Virus record (IMG/VR): IMGVR_UViG_3300006098_000001
Origin: a virus
Length of the DNA stretch: 64,000 bases
Strand: one strand, 5' to 3'
A model generated the notes under the pieces. That model was not told where the DNA came from. It saw nothing but the letters and a program-made list of their open reading frames with translations, and did no database searches. This document shows, piece after piece, positions 2,738 through 64,000 of the stretch (its first letter is position 1; the number at the start of each line of letters is the position of its first letter). The position numbers were made by a program, and so were the translations under genes.

Positions 2738-3196
2738 ATGGCAAATGAGAGCAATGACCCGAAATATACATATTATGAAGAAGTCTATAAGGCGTTCTTG
2801 AATACTGTTGATTCATATGATCTTCCACGATTGGATGATGATGAATTGGCAGATGTCCTTTACGGGTATATGGACGCGGGTCGTTTGATGTTTAGCACTT
2901 ATATTGCTAAAGATTTCATGGATGATGACCCAGAAAATAAGCGTTTCAACTTTAAGATGACCAGGATTGAGATCACTCTTTTAGCCCAAGCAATGAAACT
3001 TGAATGGGTTAGGGAACACTTGAATTCCGAAGAATTGATGAGAAAAGCAATCGGTGACCGAGATTACACAACAGTGCAAGGTTATCAGTATATCGACAGA
3101 TTGCAAAATATGGAAAAGCAATTGAGCCGTGAAATTACTGCGCAAATCAATCGTTTGGAATATTCAAATTCAGAGCTCTATGGAGAAATGAAATGA
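2738..3196 (+). CDS. hypothetical head-tail connector-region protein
   Basis: ATG at 2738 follows GGAAGGGGA. The stop overlaps the next start (ATGA). Confidence 0.5.
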   Translation: MANESNDPKYTYYEEVYKAFLNTVDSYDLPRLDDDELADVLYGYMDAGRLMFSTYIAKDFMDDDPENKRFNFKMTRIEITLLAQAMKLEWVREHLNSEELMRKAIGDRDYTTVQGYQYIDRLQNMEKQLSREITAQINRLEYSNSELYGEMK

Positions 3197-4254
3197 GTAG
3201 TTTTTCAACATCTTATCGTAGAAAACAAAAAGTCCTCGGAGATAACAGGGTTACAAGAAATTATAACCGTCGACTTGAGGAATTTAATTTGTTCTATCGG
3301 GATACGTTGACAAGGCATGATTGTGTAATTGATGGTGTCCCAACGCAGGCGGTCTTTCAAGATCATTCACAAAGTAACAATAAAGATTTGTCTGATGACA
3401 AGTACGTTGTTGTCCCAAATTCAGTTGAAGTTGGTGTGGGCTCATATATTGAATGGGCGGACGAAACATGGATGGTTTTTACAGAAGAATATAAGACCAT
3501 TCCCACCCATCAACAATTAAAGATAAAGCATACGAATAGACGGCTTAAGTGGTTGACGAACAAGAACAGTAAGCTGATTTGCAACTTTGGGAAAGGTTGG
3601 CCTGCTTATGTACAGAACCAGACGCTTTATACATTAGGGGTGTCATTCGCAGGACAAAATATCGCATTAGCGAATGCAAAGATGTCTGTCTATATCAAAG
3701 ATATTCCTGAAACGCGTGCAGTTAAGGTTGGGACCAGATTATGGATAGCTGGGCAAGTCTATAAGGTTGAATTCGCTGACTACGTATCAAGACCGGGATT
3801 AGTTAACTGGTTATTAGACGAAGATACAAAGAATCCGGAAACCGATAATTCTGACTTAGAAATAGCTGATTATTGGAATTCTGGAGGTAAAGACGAAGAT
3901 GATTCCATAAAAGACGTATCTAAGTCGACTGTGCCTACAAACGGCTCTGGCAGCAGCCATTCTGAGGACGAAAAGCCGAAAGCTGAATGGAACATCGAAG
4001 GAACAATTAAAGCTCGCCTAGGGCATACCTATGTCTATACAGCGATGAATTCTGATGGAACTAAGGCAGATGTCTCCGAATGGATGATTGGAACCCTTGA
4101 AGACTCTCCATTTTATGTAAAAGAAAAAGATAATCATAGCATTACTGTGACCGTGAAAGACATCTATAAGCTAGTTGGACAAACAGTAACAATCACAGCA
4201 AAAGCCAATGACGAAATAAAAAATATTGCAATAAAAATTATAAAGAAGTTCTAG
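3193..4254 (+). CDS. structural protein with a C-terminal Ig-like domain
   Basis: Translationally coupled start. The C-terminal ~90 aa has a beta-sandwich-like pattern (HSITVTVKD...GQTVTITAKAND). Confidence 0.4.
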   Translation: MSSFSTSYRRKQKVLGDNRVTRNYNRRLEEFNLFYRDTLTRHDCVIDGVPTQAVFQDHSQSNNKDLSDDKYVVVPNSVEVGVGSYIEWADETWMVFTEEYKTIPTHQQLKIKHTNRRLKWLTNKNSKLICNFGKGWPAYVQNQTLYTLGVSFAGQNIALANAKMSVYIKDIPETRAVKVGTRLWIAGQVYKVEFADYVSRPGLVNWLLDEDTKNPETDNSDLEIADYWNSGGKDEDDSIKDVSKSTVPTNGSGSSHSEDEKPKAEWNIEGTIKARLGHTYVYTAMNSDGTKADVSEWMIGTLEDSPFYVKEKDNHSITVTVKDIYKLVGQTVTITAKANDEIKNIAIKIIKKF

Positions 4255-59219: not shown

Positions 59220-59269
59220 ACTTAATTTCATTGTACTTAATTAACTAAGTATGATATTATAATTATGTA

Positions 59270-59410
59270 AACAAAAAGAGCCATGCTGCAACATGACTCT
59301 TTCAGCGTCATCGGATTTTAGCGGTGGCAAGTTACTAACGTCATTTATTTTTATTAAACGAAGACTTCAGAAAACACTGCCCCGGTTCCAAAAGGCGGTG
59401 TTTTTCTTTT
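59270..59410 (+). ncRNA. candidate antisense sRNA of locus A
   Basis: A -10 TATAAT at 59258-59263 with an upstream TG. The 5' hairpin is shared with locus B. A terminator ACACTGCC...GGCGGTGT followed by TTTTCTTTT lies at 59374-59410. The RNA would be antisense to the 3' part of the minus-strand ORF. Confidence 0.4.
59272..59301 (-). terminator. terminator of the locus A mRNA (bidirectional hairpin)
   Basis: On the minus strand: AAGAGTCATG-ttgcag-CATGGCTCTT followed by TTTGTTT. It is homologous to the hairpin at 63013-63041. Confidence 0.6.
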
Positions 59411-59625
59411 GCATCTCTGTCTAATTCTGTGTCATTCGGTGGAGATTTCCACGTCAACACAACCCTTTTTGCAGCTCGGATTACTGTGCCCACTGCATCA
59501 ATACAGTAAGCCACACTGAGTAACAATAGGCGTAGAGCCAGAAATATTCCGACCAAGCCTAGTATCGTTACAATCATCCCAACCGCCCAGGGGCAACTTG
59601 ATTGCAAAAGTCCAATTAAGGACAA
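59341..59625 (-). CDS. small membrane protein (toxin candidate, locus A)
   Basis: TTG lies 13 nt after the conserved CGTAAGAAGGGAG leader. TM segment VGMIVTILGLVGIFLALRLLLLSVAY. Confidence 0.4.
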   Translation of the reverse strand: MSLIGLLQSSCPWAVGMIVTILGLVGIFLALRLLLLSVAYCIDAVGTVIRAAKRVVLTWKSPPNDTELDRDAKEKHRLLEPGQCFLKSSFNKNK

Positions 59626-59742
59626 ACTTCACGGCGCACTCCCTTCTTACGGATAGAGGAGAGTACCACGAACTTACGCTCATAGTGACCACCATCCTTC
59701 CATGGATTCGCGCCACCGCCATTAAATCTTTTTGACATTAAT

Positions 59743-59751: not shown

Positions 59752-59862
59752 TACGATTACAATAAAACAGTTAAACTATAGAATAATACTGCTCACAGCG
59801 TCTAAAATAATCCTTGACAAGTTTTGACTCCCACTAATTTACAAATGTGATACAATAACATT

Positions 59863-59929
59863 AAGGAAATCCAAATACGGATTCCTACCTTCCTAAGATG
59901 GCTCCACTTTATGTGGGGCTTTTCTTTTT
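59863..59929 (+). ncRNA. candidate short leader/sRNA upstream of the small recombinase
   Basis: An extended -10 TGATACAAT at 59848-59856. A hairpin GGAAATCC/GGATTCC is present. A terminator GCTCCAC-tttat-GTGGGGC followed by TTTTCTTTTT lies at 59901-59929. Confidence 0.35.
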
Positions 59930-59945
59930 ACTTATTTTTAGTAAA

Positions 59946-59974
59946 GAAGTGTTATTTGTTTTTAATAACACTTC
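59946..59974. promoter_or_regulatory. 11-7-11 perfect palindrome, candidate tyrosine-recombinase core site
   Basis: GAAGTGTTATT-tgttttt-AATAACACTTC. Confidence 0.5.
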
Positions 59975-60018
59975 CTAATTTAAGCTATTTTAGCACTCAT
60001 TTTTCTGGTAAAATAAAG

Positions 60019-60054
60019 AAGTGTTATAATTCTATATATCAAAAAATAACACTT
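60019..60054. promoter_or_regulatory. second inverted pair of the AAGTGTTAT motif, overlapping the recombinase promoter
   Basis: AAGTGTTAT-18 nt-ATAACACTT. The left arm overlaps the extended -10 gTGtTATAAT (60022-60030). Confidence 0.45.
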
Positions 60055-60069
60055 GTATTAGGTGGTTTT

Positions 60070-60663
60070 ATGAAACAGTTAGTCTTACCCATAAAAGACT
60101 CTTATGTGTTATCTGAAGTACAAGATACGTTACTAAATAACTTTAGAGCTGGTGTTAGAAACTACACTATCTTTCAAGTTGGAAAAGCTACCTTACTTCG
60201 AGTAAGTGACGTACTCAGATTAAAACAAGAAGATGTCTATGATAAATATGGTGAGGTAAAAAGAAATGCATTTATTAAAGACAAAAAGACGGGGAAGCAA
60301 AATACATTGTATTTAAAACCTGTCCGTGAAGATTTAGAAAATTACAAAAAATGGTTAGAAGAAAATGATTATTATTTAACAACGCCCTGGTTATTTCCTT
60401 CAACTACCAGACCCAACAAACATATTGATGAAAGGCAATATTATACGGTCATGCACGAAGTTGGAGATCTCTTGGACATTCCATATCTTGGAACACACAC
60501 TATGAGAAAGACTGGGGCATATCGAGTTTATGTACAGAGTAATTATAATATCGGATTAGTCATGTCATTACTTAACCATTCATCAGAAGAAATGACCCTG
60601 AGATATTTGGGATTAGATCAAGTATCCCGAGAAAGATTGTTGGACAAGGTCGATTTTGGGTAA
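60070..60663 (+). CDS. small (197-aa) tyrosine recombinase, catalytic domain only
   Basis: ATG follows AGGTGG. The catalytic pattern is R (LLRVSDVL), HxxR (GTHTMRKTG) and H...Y (LNHSSEEMTLRYLG). Confidence 0.7.
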   Translation: MKQLVLPIKDSYVLSEVQDTLLNNFRAGVRNYTIFQVGKATLLRVSDVLRLKQEDVYDKYGEVKRNAFIKDKKTGKQNTLYLKPVREDLENYKKWLEENDYYLTTPWLFPSTTRPNKHIDERQYYTVMHEVGDLLDIPYLGTHTMRKTGAYRVYVQSNYNIGLVMSLLNHSSEEMTLRYLGLDQVSRERLLDKVDFG

Positions 60664-61655: not shown

Positions 61656-61958
61656 GCCTTATTATTATTCCTGCTTAGACGAAACGAAAAATTAATTAAC
61701 ATATAGTTGATCATTTAGATTGCGCTGAGAGCTTGTTTTTAATGCTGAGTTGCAAGAAAAACTTCGGTAAAATAAAAAGGTAGATATTTTCCCACAAATA
61801 TCTCACCCCAATATTCATATACTAAAATCTCCCTCAAGGAATTTTAGTGAAAATATGTTTCTTTATAACCTTTTGACATTCTACAATGAGTAGGATGTCT
61901 TTTTTTATACTCTGAAGCAGGATAAATGCCAAGTTTTATGTTATGATATAATTAGGGT

Positions 61959-62045
61959 ATTATATGCTGCACAGTAAGAACCTAACAAAAATAGACATCT
62001 ATCATTACCTCAATTGAAGTAGTTAATAGATGCCTATTTTTCTTA
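61959..62045 (+). ncRNA. candidate sRNA
   Basis: An extended -10 TGATATAAT at 61944-61952. A terminator AATAGACATCTAT...ATAGATGCCTATT followed by TTTTCTTATTT. No plausible ORF. Confidence 0.35.
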
Positions 62046-62147
62046 TTTCTATCAATTGTCCCCCTGTGCAGGACACAAACCACCAATTTTATCATAACAT
62101 TAAAATAATACTATGATCAAGTATGACTAATAGGGTATAATATACCT

Positions 62148-62221
62148 AGTTACTATTTAGAGTAACTATTTTCATCTTCATTGGAGCTCCAGGACATCTT
62201 CCCAGTCCTGGACTTCTTTTT
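62148..62221 (+). ncRNA. candidate sRNA
   Basis: A -10 TATAAT at 62136-62141. A 5' hairpin AGTTACT/AGTAACT is present. A terminator TCCAGGAC-9 nt-GTCCTGGA followed by CTTCTTTTT. Confidence 0.35.
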
Positions 62222-62483
62222 ATCTATATGATATTTTTCACATTTTGTGCATAGTAAAAGACCGTCCTCGTATAACTTTGGCGAGTTGCAGGACGATCTT
62301 TTATTAGTTAATCTGTAACATGGCCACCGTCTTTTTAACGGGCCTGCTTTTTGCGTATCTATATTATAGCATGAAAGAAGGGAATTGAGTAGTCGGTGAA
62401 TACTTAGTGAGGTGTTCATGAGTCTTTTGTGTTATAACCAGTCATTAAAATTTTTATTTTAATGCGACGAAAATAAGGCAAAC

Positions 62484-62541
62484 AAAAAAACACCATCTAA
62501 TAAAGTTTTGACCGACTTTAGATGGTGCTTAGTCTCTACAT
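62484..62541 (-). ncRNA. candidate short sRNA sharing its 3' module with sRNA B
   Basis: A minus-strand -10 TATAAT (plus-strand 62548-62553). A 10-bp hairpin CACCATCTAA/TTAGATGGTG followed by T7. Confidence 0.35.
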
Positions 62542-62610
62542 TGTCTTATTATACACTATAGAAAAACTTAGTGTAAGTTGTAATCATTTAATTTCAAATA
62601 ATCTTTCCTA

Positions 62611-62619
62611 TGATATAAT
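62611..62619 (+). promoter_or_regulatory. extended -10 promoter TGATATAAT (locus B mRNA)
   Basis: cTATGATATAATATTt, the same core as the locus A promoter. Confidence 0.55.
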
Positions 62620-62751
62620 ATTTATGGATTATAAGGAAGCGTTGGTGGTTCCTAATCTCTGGTTTATAATACTGGAGGTGCTGCCAATGAAAGCAGTTAA
62701 ACAAACTTGACCCTAAGTTCAATTTTCGTAAGAAAGGAGAATGGCGGGTAA

Positions 62752-62901
62752 ATGAGTTTCAACAGCCTAGACCCATTTGAAGGCCTTGCAAAGGTTATTC
62801 GGGCTATGCGTGGACTCGATACCGGTGTGCAATATGCCACCCTTGCCACATTTGTAATTGTGGTTGGCATTATTGCGTTTACTATTTGCTATACGCACTA
62901 G
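62752..62901 (+). CDS. 49-aa membrane peptide (toxin candidate, locus B; below the ORF-track cutoff)
   Basis: ATG lies 12 nt after the conserved CGTAAGAAAGGAG. MSFNSLDPFEGLAKVIRAMRGLDTGVQYATLATFVIVVGIIAFTICYTH. Confidence 0.45.
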   Translation: MSFNSLDPFEGLAKVIRAMRGLDTGVQYATLATFVIVVGIIAFTICYTH

Positions 62902-62914
62902 CGTTAACAGCAAA

Positions 62915-63046
62915 TAAAAAACACCATTCGTGAGTTTAGCAGCGAACGATGGTGTTTAGTCTCAACGTCATTAAGAGATTAGGCATTATCAACAATACTT
63001 ATTAATCTCAGGAAGAGCTATGCTGCAACATAGCTCTTTTTGTTTA
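62915..63046 (-). ncRNA. candidate antisense sRNA of locus B
   Basis: A minus-strand -10 TATAAT (plus-strand 63054-63059). The 5' hairpin is shared with locus A. A minus-strand terminator CACCAT...ATGGTG followed by T6 lies at 62915-62954. Confidence 0.4.
63013..63041 (+). terminator. terminator of the locus B mRNA (bidirectional hairpin)
   Basis: AAGAGCTATG-ctgcaa-CATAGCTCTT followed by TTTGTTT. Confidence 0.7.
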
Positions 63047-63127
63047 CACAAGTATTATAACATCTTATGTTCGTTACGTACATAAAAATTAAAAAATCTT
63101 CTTGACATTGTTATTTTGTAATAATTA

Positions 63128-63364: not shown

Positions 63365-63520
63365 TTATCTAAACCTACGGTTTAATGCTTGAAGTGGGAG
63401 ATTCTGGAAACATCGCATACTTACCCTACTGATTCTGAACGAACCTTCAAGCAGAGGTTACGACTATTAACCAAGGCTCGTCCCGAGCCTAACTTTATCT
63501 ATCGGATAGCTAATCCTTTT
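63362..63520 (-). ncRNA. omegaRNA / right-end (RE) region of an IS200/IS605-family element (extent approximate)
   Basis: Directly 3' of, and overlapping, the tnpB stop. Stems are AGGCTCG-gga-CGAGCCT, a long-range CTTGAAG/CTTCAAG pair, and AAACC-gta-GGTTT. Confidence 0.45.
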
Positions 63521-64000
63521 TGCAAGATGACTTGTGCAGCGTTAATATCACGATCTAAATGTTTACCACAGTTTGGACAATCCCACTCACGTACCGCTAA
63601 CCATTCCGATTTATTCAATCCTAACCGATGATTATTCTTCCCACAATTAGCACAAATTTGGCTAGTATATGACGGATTGACCTGAATAAGCTTTTTACCG
63701 TACCAGTCACACTTATATTGCAATATATCTACTAATTTTGACCAGCTAGCGTTAGCGATTCCTCTAGCTAAATGGTGATTTTTCATCATTCCCTTAGTAT
63801 TAAGTTTTTCCAACACAATAATGTCGTACTTTTTGACCAATTTAGTAGTGAATTTTTGTAGCTGTTCCAACCGTTGGTTGGCAATCTTTTGCCGATACTT
63901 CGCCACCATAATACGAGCTTTCTGATAATTCTTAAAATCGTCTAATTGCCGTGGAACTAACACTTTATTATGATGATCCCAGGCGATTTCCTGCTGGGCC
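63499..64000 (-). CDS. tnpB: TnpB (RNA-guided nuclease of IS200/IS605), C-terminal part; N-terminus lies beyond the window
   Basis: The RuvC/Zn-ribbon region reads NPSYTSQICANCG...WDCPNCGKHLDRDINAA. The frame stays open to nt 64000. Confidence 0.8.
   Translation of the reverse strand, partial: AQQEIAWDHHNKVLVPRQLDDFKNYQKARIMVAKYRQKIANQRLEQLQKFTTKLVKKYDIIVLEKLNTKGMMKNHHLARGIANASWSKLVDILQYKCDWYGKKLIQVNPSYTSQICANCGKNNHRLGLNKSEWLAVREWDCPNCGKHLDRDINAAQVILQKGLAIR

Follow-up and report, generated by a model that had tools for sequence, protein, structure and literature searches.

Locus B, a probable type I toxin-antitoxin-like module with a nested 3′ antisense RNA in a Limosilactobacillus reuteri megaplasmid-type sequence

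In Gram-positive type I toxin-antitoxin systems of the 3′-overlap class, the toxin mRNA and its antisense RNA share 100–140 bp of complementarity and the mRNA decays in an RNase III-dependent manner (PMC6562991, PMC8594479). In bsrG/SR4, the 5′ and 3′ parts of the mRNA build a main helix; the antitoxin enters this helix at its 3′ strand and alters the fold at the ribosome binding site (RBS) (PMC6562991, PMC8594479); moreover, the bsrG and bsrE/H loci carry different toxins on one RNA scaffold (PMC6562991). The txpA/RatA family has been reported in Lactobacillales, with homologs in Enterococcus, Lactobacillus and Leuconostoc (PMC2887945). Among lactobacilli, the Fst-like Lpt appears to be the only system studied, and our literature search returned no description of such a type I system in Limosilactobacillus reuteri. 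Here we examine locus B, situated around positions 62,600–63,090 of a 64,000-nt stretch (hereafter, the window) filed as IMG/VR virus record IMGVR_UViG_3300006098_000001. Locus B is probably a type I toxin-antitoxin-like module of the 3′-overlap class, with an orphan peptide and hok-like mRNA features (coordinates in Table 1).

Locus B and its surroundings match megaplasmids of L. reuteri, of 52–179 kb, mostly of rep_cluster_2483 and non-mobilizable. The window and these relatives have in common the gene order thymidine kinase, LysM protein and small tyrosine recombinase and, because of this and of the match to the locus itself, the window is L. reuteri megaplasmid-type sequence. The exact 49-amino acid (aa) peptide is indexed in 905 public assembly blocks, in contigs of up to 50–200 kb, and is labelled in RefSeq as hypothetical protein WP_019253498.1 (plasmid record NZ_CP065541). 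For comparison we used seven full-length loci, six of L. reuteri type and one from a plasmid of Limosilactobacillus mucosae, plus a partial copy (L010). Besides the window, the L. reuteri-type loci comprise those of plasmids YLR001 (94 % nucleotide identity to locus B) and FN041 (73.5 %), two metagenome contig copies (L008 and L009, 64–66 % amino acid identity) and a Logan contig copy (L011, 55 %). The L. mucosae copy (NZ_CP058956; L016, coordinates 2382–2779) codes for a peptide of 52 aa with 41 % amino acid identity, and its RNA architecture matches that of locus B despite this distance. A second match is present in the same L. mucosae record. Locus B is a real, conserved and well-organised module.

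Table 1. Predicted elements of locus B and their positions in the window
Element	Position	Strand	Remarks
mRNA promoter, extended −10 TGaTATAAT	62611–62619	+	Transcription start predicted near 62626
Clamp, 5′ arm	62626–62661	+	Starts at the predicted first mRNA nucleotide; in the minimum-free-energy fold
Mini-ORF	62674–62710	+	SD GGAGG 62674–62678, 8-nt spacer, ATG 62687, MKAVKQT, TGA 62708–62710
Ribosome-binding region of the peptide ORF, AAGAAAGGAG	62730–62739	+	In a local hairpin, 12 nt before the ATG
49-aa peptide ORF (putative toxin)	62752–62901	+	Long helix, C-terminal membrane segment at residues 28–47
Antisense terminator	62912–62960	−	Hairpin 62956–62921, then U6AU3
Predicted antisense RNA (putative antitoxin)	62912–63047	−	ca. 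135 nt, three hairpins, within the mRNA 3′ UTR
Clamp, 3′ arm	62973–63009	+	Also complement of the antisense middle hairpin
mRNA intrinsic terminator	63009–63048 (core 63013–63041)	+	Complement is the antisense 5′ hairpin; common to locus A
Antisense promoter, extended −10 TGtTATAAT	63062–63054	−	TATAAT 63059–63054, just past the mRNA terminator
Inverted repeat, right arm	63013–63092		Left arm 59222–59301 at locus A

The 49-aa open reading frame (ORF) is a genuine gene under purifying selection. The ratio of nonsynonymous to synonymous substitution rates (dN/dS) between divergent copies is 0.13–0.31, with synonymous sites saturated (dS ca. 1–1.9), and identity at codon positions 1, 2 and 3 is 71, 88 and 46 %, respectively. 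The position of the start codon (ATG or GTG) is constant across copies, the indel is in frame and the N-terminal motif DPFxGLAKV is conserved. An earlier reading of the window, made from its sequence only (hereafter, the sequence-only reading), had placed here, at 62752–62901, a 49-aa peptide with a C-terminal transmembrane segment; the ORF is present, its hydropathy maximum falls at residues 28–47, and AlphaFold2 models it as a single helix over residues 8–48 (predicted local distance difference test score, pLDDT, 84). The 3′ end of the gene is variable: the stop codon (62899–62901) is TAG in the window and in YLR001, and is replaced by CAG in several metagenome alleles, whose products are 2 to 26 residues longer (QR, QLALTANKKHHS and others). 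Relatives carry short basic C-terminal tails (QR, PRK, KRK, KKPRE), and the tail present in all the more distant ones is absent from the window allele because the TAG stop precedes it. In one frameshift allele (P0007) the membrane segment is destroyed. Searches with the peptide against Pfam, NCBIfam and PHROGs gave no family match, a scan of viral contigs returned nothing, and HMMER against 1.84 billion representative proteins retrieved just two, both of them close relatives. The peptide is an orphan family, which we found in Limosilactobacillus only.

The predicted mRNA of this gene is ca. 423 nt long (about 62626–63048, + strand), with a leader of 126 nt. The promoter that the sequence-only reading had located at 62608–62622 is present, displaced by one nucleotide: the stretch TATGATATAATATT, at 62609–62622, contains an extended −10 box and has a weak −35, which is why a consensus promoter scan did not list it. 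The TGnTATAAT box occurs in all six L. reuteri-type homologs, and their upstream flanks are unalignable. Both sequences singled out in the leader, AAGGAAGCGTTGGTGGTTC and CGTAAGAAAGGAG, were found, and the 12 nt claimed between the Shine-Dalgarno sequence (SD) and the start codon are exact, with GGAG ending at 62739 and the ATG at 62752. This GGAG and its CGGG spacer are invariant among the copies, the local fold around the RBS reaches −14.8 kcal/mol, and the RBS is poor, with a spacing of 11–12 nt and partly buried in a hairpin. At the other end, the 3′ untranslated region (UTR), estimated previously at ca. 110 nt, has a total length of ca. 147 nt, of which 111 nt precede the foot of the terminator. 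The terminator core lies at 63013–63041, as previously noted; the stem, described then as 10 bp, folds as 14 bp (−18.4 kcal/mol, z −5.0) and is followed by UUUUUGUUU. This hairpin shows compensatory CG to UA exchanges across copies; a terminator scan missed it, possibly, in our guess, because a G-U extension of the stem consumes the T-run. The fold of the whole mRNA has a z of −6.96. Segments of the UTRs are 63–89 % identical, compared to the 46 % seen at the third codon positions of the same copies, and the untranslated regions are constrained more strongly than synonymous sites.

The first 36 nt of the mRNA are predicted to pair with positions 62973–63009, forming a long-distance clamp of ca. 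30 bp between both ends of the molecule, whose duplex in the window has a free energy of −31 kcal/mol (z −3.9). Conservation of the clamp was assessed by folding the duplex of each sequence and by base-pair ladders. All six L. reuteri-type copies form it, with −26.5 to −37.1 kcal/mol (z −3.5 to −6.6, against shuffled arms), and it accumulates double-sided compensatory changes, from CCU/AGG to UUC/GAG to UUU/GAA and, in L011, from AAU/AUU to GGU/ACC. In L. mucosae the clamp is of unrelated sequence and reaches −40.5 kcal/mol (z −4.4). An RNAalifold run on a default MAFFT alignment was discarded, with the 5′ arm shifted by one base in two sequences and other mid-helices preferred. The antisense RNA described below covers the 3′ strand of the clamp. 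The clamp, this antisense cover and an upstream mini-ORF with a strong SD are three features of importance for the mechanism that the sequence-only reading had missed.

The mini-ORF lies in the leader, between the 5′ arm and the peptide RBS, and all seven copies contain it with an optimal SD. It has 6–7 codons, or 23 in L. mucosae, and a 3-nt indel is in frame. The most conserved stretch of the leader, CTGGAGGTGCTGCCAATG, invariant in five copies, carries its GGAGG, the 8-nt spacer and the ATG. The deduced peptides of the six L. reuteri-type copies are MKAVKQT, MQAVRQI, MTVRKT (twice), MKAVRKT and MVVLEET, and in these six copies the distance from the mini-ORF stop to the AUG of the peptide is 40–41 nt. 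The L. mucosae mini-ORF starts with MMKVVLT, spans the toxin SD and overlaps the first 17 nt of the toxin ORF. In most copies, local folding predicts base pairs between the final codons of the mini-ORF and the SD or start region of the toxin, an anatomy that lends thin support to a translational coupling of the mini-ORF to the peptide ORF. The GGAGG can also be sequestered by an upstream CUCUGG. Another mini reading frame of the window, ATGGCGGGTAAATGA, which overlaps the toxin ATG, was dropped, not being conserved in YLR001.

On the opposite strand, the sequence-only reading had proposed an RNA of ca. 130 nt inside the mRNA 3′ UTR, transcribed from a TATAAT promoter at 63054–63059 and ending at a hairpin plus T6 at 62954–62915. 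All three elements are where they were described: the predicted RNA is ca. 135 nt long and wholly nested, the TATAAT is preceded by TGt, which makes it an extended −10, and the hairpin and its U6AU3 tail, which reaches to near 62912, agree within 1–2 nt. The RNA is perfectly complementary to the tail of the mRNA over ca. 135 nt, and its end lies 11 nt from the ORF, which it does not overlap. Its terminator hairpin lacks a U-run on the + strand, and the mRNA can therefore read through it. The antisense fold has a z of −3.7; a consensus of the seven homologs contains 37 pairs, eight of them with double-sided changes, and retains the three hairpins. The terminator hairpin is likewise kept in the seven homologs with compensatory pairs. 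The antisense promoter has a −10 box in all homologs, at a constant distance from the hairpin that follows the promoter. Its form varies: the window and L011 (TGgTACAAT) have an extended −10, the FN041 group TTGAAA-17-TATAAT and the L. mucosae copy TTGATT-17-TATAAT.

Complementarity of the antisense RNA to the 5′ leader and RBS (the first 150 nt) was no better than that of shuffled sequences in six copies. Trans pairing to this region of the fst/RNAII or SprA1as type was rejected on this basis and, since there is no complementarity to the leader beyond chance, the antisense RNA must act through the 3′ UTR. Additionally, its middle hairpin mimics the 5′ arm of the mRNA, so that binding has to displace this arm.

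With Rfam, locus B and its counterpart in the window, locus A (see below), gave only matches below threshold, to Ref66 (30.4 against 92 bits), RatA (30.8 against 49 bits), rli28 and ctRNA, and homologs L008, L011 and L016 gave none. We treat these scores as a likeness of the hairpin plus A-rich leader and not as family membership; no discussion of Ref66 was found in the literature searched. The likeness to RatA (30.8 bits, E 0.41) is limited to the antisense 5′ hairpin block of locus A, which falls below the gathering score of 49 of RF01776, whereas locus B and the three homologs did not match this model.

Among the closest known systems are bsrG/SR4 and bsrE/SR5 of Bacillus subtilis. As in these systems, the two RNAs of locus B are convergent and complementary at the 3′ end of the mRNA, over 100–140 bp in the B. 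subtilis pairs, and the mRNA has a main helix built from 5′ and 3′ parts, the 3′ strand of which is the antitoxin target, with a partly sequestered RBS. The arrangement that characterizes the bsrG/SR4 class is found in silico in locus B, with an overlap of ca. 135 nt and the 3′ arm of the clamp (62973–63009) within the antisense target. The presence of differing toxins on the bsrG/bsrE scaffold (PMC6562991) also parallels what is seen in loci A and B. In contrast, the family searches showed no similarity of peptide or RNA sequence to bsrG/bsrE, the antisense RNA of locus B is wholly nested in the 3′ UTR and off the ORF, unlike that of bsrG/SR4, and an upstream mini-ORF is present. BsrG and BsrE have 30–38 aa, versus 49 aa in locus B, and their membrane segment is N-terminal.

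With txpA/RatA, from the skin element of B. subtilis, locus B shares a 3′ convergent antisense RNA, a location in a mobile element and an expected RNase III-dependent decay of the mRNA, although RatA reaches well past the end of the mRNA while the antisense RNA of locus B is nested. No homology to TxpA or BsrG emerged from the Pfam, NCBIfam and PHROG scans or from HMMER, where the presence of a TxpA model in the libraries is unconfirmed and no direct comparison of the peptide to TxpA or BsrG was made. The 5′–3′ long-distance pairing of the toxin mRNA is also known from hok/mok/sok of plasmid R1 and aapA/IsoA of Helicobacter, and hok/mok has, like locus B, a leader frame before or overlapping the toxin start (an overlap of 17 nt in L. 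mucosae). The plasmid-borne logic of post-segregational killing of hok/sok can likewise be compared to that proposed for locus B. However, these two systems are Gram-negative, Sok and IsoA bind the 5′ translation-initiation region instead of the 3′ UTR, and the peptide did not match Hok_Gef in Pfam. Lastly, par (fst/RNAII, from pAD1) and Lpt/RNAII (Lacticaseibacillus) are, as locus B, plasmid systems of Lactobacillales with convergent transcripts (PMC5608710, PMC7472228). Their toxins are smaller (29–33 aa, with 29 aa for Lpt; PMC6811638) than the 49 aa of locus B, which showed no Pfam match to the Fst family. In addition, direct repeats mediate the pairing of RNAII with the 5′ region, and its terminator is bidirectional and shared, whereas the antisense RNA of locus B has a terminator of its own. 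In its predicted operation, locus B is like txpA/RatA and bsrG/SR4 with a hok-like mRNA, and the searches made do not place it in any of these families.

The proposed action is modelled on txpA/RatA and bsrG/SR4. The clamp would bury the 5′ end of the mRNA, protecting it from 5′ exonuclease and making the mRNA long-lived. Ribosomes finishing the mini-ORF would open the RBS hairpin and license translation of the peptide, as mok does for hok. A loop-loop contact between the antisense RNA and the mRNA could then zip into a duplex of ca. 135 bp, which would displace the 5′ arm, strip the clamp and offer a substrate to RNase III. While the plasmid is present, the mRNA would be destroyed or held untranslated; upon loss, the antisense RNA would disappear sooner than the mRNA, and the surviving mRNA would yield the peptide and cause membrane damage. 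A broader proposal, which we advance tentatively, is that locus B represents an undescribed type I family of Limosilactobacillus megaplasmids, combining a 3′-UTR antisense RNA, a clamp and a licensing mini-ORF. Its antitoxin might strip the 3′ strand of the clamp, in place of masking the RBS, its toxin might be a new, C-terminally anchored helical one, and its RNA might serve as a chassis for interchangeable toxins, such as those of loci A and B.

Several observations on the distribution of the module bear on its behaviour. Plasmid pAN417A holds an orphan, consisting of the antisense part alone of an A-type module, and LL7 a 3′ fragment of the module. In the window itself, positions 62468–62546 are a remnant of a second B-type module, ca. 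95 % identical to the 3′ UTR of L008 and L010, which retains the sequence from the end of the ORF through the antisense-terminator hairpin and is devoid of the ORF, 3′ arm, terminator and antisense promoter; plasmid YLR001 has the same remnant ahead of its locus B. These orphan and truncated copies and the frameshift allele could hint indirectly at a toxic peptide and, together with the megaplasmid location and the occurrence of two peptides on one RNA scaffold, resemble the behaviour of toxin-antitoxin loci.

The core of the reading already put forward for the window, a type I toxin-antitoxin-like locus that shares its RNA scaffold with locus A and carries an unrelated ORF, agrees with every in silico test run: the ORF is coding, the convergent antisense promoter and terminator are conserved, the UTRs are constrained, and decayed and orphan copies occur in related plasmids. 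The idea of segment inversion that accompanied it is not supported. At the sequence level, what is generally expected of a type I system is present: a small (<60 aa) membrane peptide, product of a real gene, and an antisense gene with its own promoter and terminator. Other points weigh against this reading. Transcription, the relative stabilities of the RNAs, RNase III cleavage, translational coupling and toxicity, that is, all the functional claims for locus B, are what we infer. Nothing was matched above threshold among the toxin families of Pfam, NCBIfam and PHROGs or the antitoxin families of Rfam, and the shape of the peptide, with a long soluble or amphipathic N-terminal part and a C-terminal membrane segment, is atypical of type I toxins. 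The TAG of the window allele removes a short basic tail that relatives keep, and the −35 box of the antisense promoter is weak in the window copy (3/6). The case for the mini-ORF comes from seven related sequences; alternatively, its GGAGG could have a structural role or stabilise the mRNA. We also considered a simple switch, whereby antisense binding releases the 5′ arm to sequester the mini-ORF SD. In silico, the unpaired probabilities changed accordingly in two of five copies (the window and YLR001), the SD being already sequestered in FN041, L008 and L009, and this model was not adopted.

The best surviving alternative, which we regard as rather unlikely, is that locus B codes for a small membrane protein tuned by antisense RNA and not for an addiction toxin, for instance an effector, holin-like or acting on the cell envelope, of a phage-like plasmid. 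This would agree with the long helix and C-terminal membrane segment, unlike those of classical type I toxins, and with several genes found nearby: the L. mucosae homolog is directly upstream of a GH25 lysozyme gene (L016, coordinates 2880–3824), locus A is next to a LysM cell-wall protein, and peptides matching Pfam Hol_Tox occur near locus B in related plasmids. There is also the precedent of predicted type I toxins, such as YhzE-2, that proved not toxic in tests (PMC2887945). However, the linkage to a hydrolase is not kept, as what comes after locus B in L. reuteri is an unrelated leftward operon or an insertion sequence (IS) element, and in L. mucosae a terminator and separate promoters are situated between the peptide gene and the GH25 gene. 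Furthermore, the clamp, the poor RBS, the full antisense cover, the decayed and orphan copies and the frameshift alleles fit a harmful product. A role as a membrane protein and toxicity are, in any case, not mutually exclusive.

The sequence-only reading had paired locus B with a mirror-image paralog, locus A (59266–59736, − strand), with which it shares the promoter, fragments of the leader, the SD context, the antisense terminator and the terminator/antisense-promoter block. Within this block, the sequence CTCTTTTTGTTTACA was found exactly twice in the 64 kb, at 59266–59280 (−) and 63034–63048 (+), with 0.53 matches expected at up to two mismatches, so the block said to be common to both loci is indeed exact in them and nowhere else in the window. 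In a genome-wide scan, only one of 185,579 species genomes had the exact terminator/antisense-promoter block, that of L. reuteri plasmid p53608_1, and, it being the sole match, the exact block was found in L. reuteri alone. The ORF of locus A codes for ca. 90–94 aa, a protein conserved in p53608_1, and adjoins the gene for the LysM protein. As the earlier reading anticipated, it is not obviously homologous to that of locus B, and BLASTP detected no similarity between both peptides at E ≤ 100. The locus A mRNA has its own 5′–3′ pairing in the minimum-free-energy fold, between GGCGGUGGC and GCCACCGC (also given as GAUUUAAUGGCGGUGGC with GCCACCGCUAAAAUC). The apparent start codon of the locus A ORF is a TTG 13 nt downstream of the SD, and the frame continues across the antisense terminator.

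The shared sequences of loci A and B form an inverted repeat that flanks a 3.7-kb segment containing the gene for the tyrosine recombinase. The repeat had been described as imperfect and of ca. 70 bp; it does exist, with a length of 80 nt and a complementarity of 76–79 %. Its arrangement around the recombinase gene led to the suggestion that the repeats are recombination sites by which the recombinase inverts the segment, which we now find highly improbable. No inverted orientation appeared in any of the related plasmids or contigs inspected: four plasmids and the recombinase-carrying contig contexts (6/8), four of the latter with both arms, show the segment oriented as in the window, and the orientation of the thymidine kinase, LysM, recombinase and locus B genes is constant in all cases seen, including 16 further similar places. 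Moreover, what is repeated is the block of terminator and antisense promoter that two opposed paralogous modules have in common, modules that also occur separately (only B in FN041 and in L018/L022, only A in p53608_1), and an identity of 76 % leaves no long identical core. The recombinase has other candidate sites, since four copies of AAGTGTTAT/ATAACACTT, arranged as two palindromes at 59937–60054, are situated just upstream of its 197-aa gene (60071–60663) and are conserved as a cluster in p53608_1. These palindromes are a likelier binding or crossover site for the recombinase than the 80-nt repeat, which is here a by-product of paralogous modules and not a DNA switch.

A chance assembly of look-alike signals in AT-rich intergenic DNA, with no functional unit, is scarcely credible: even if a scan for consensus promoters and terminators left the sites of locus B unlisted and promoter-like sites in the region are no more numerous than in shuffled sequences, the whole unit is conserved over seven loci and two species, with purifying selection on the ORF, covariation in four helices and highly significant folds, and the comparative data have already refuted this explanation.

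The type I toxin-antitoxin-like module considered here is common in the megaplasmids of L. reuteri, a widely used probiotic and a model gut symbiont. If functional, it would help to explain the stable upkeep of large non-mobilizable plasmids, and it could supply a compact cassette for plasmid stabilisation or counter-selection in the engineering of Lactobacillaceae. Its operating principle is already known from type I systems, but it would offer a Gram-positive case for the joint dissection of a 3′ antisense RNA, a clamp and a leader mini-ORF.

Other small elements were noted around the two loci. Between locus A and the recombinase gene, positions 59860–59925 contain back-to-back hairpins with T-runs on both strands, and this element also adjoins the orphan antisense copy in pAN417A (L003, coordinates 2755–2830). 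A block at 61934–62221, unannotated and 93 % identical in L. reuteri plasmids NZ_CP030090 and NZ_CP041677, includes an inverted repeat of 41 nt, formed by two convergent promoter boxes that resemble TATGATATAAT and enclose hairpins; no convincing ORF was seen in the block, which may be a further pair of small RNAs or a module in decay. In L. reuteri assemblies, 29-aa ORFs match PF16935 (Hol_Tox, putative holin-like toxin; L020, coordinates 3965–4054, and L023, coordinates 692–781), ca. 1.6–2 kb upstream of locus B and in contexts without the recombinase segment, and the region of locus B may collect small-toxin genes. Beyond locus B, an ORF on the − strand (63499–64000) that runs off the end of the window resembles, from inspection of its translation by eye, a TnpB of IS200/IS605 type, and stands in the place occupied in most related contigs by a leftward operon of small phage-like genes.

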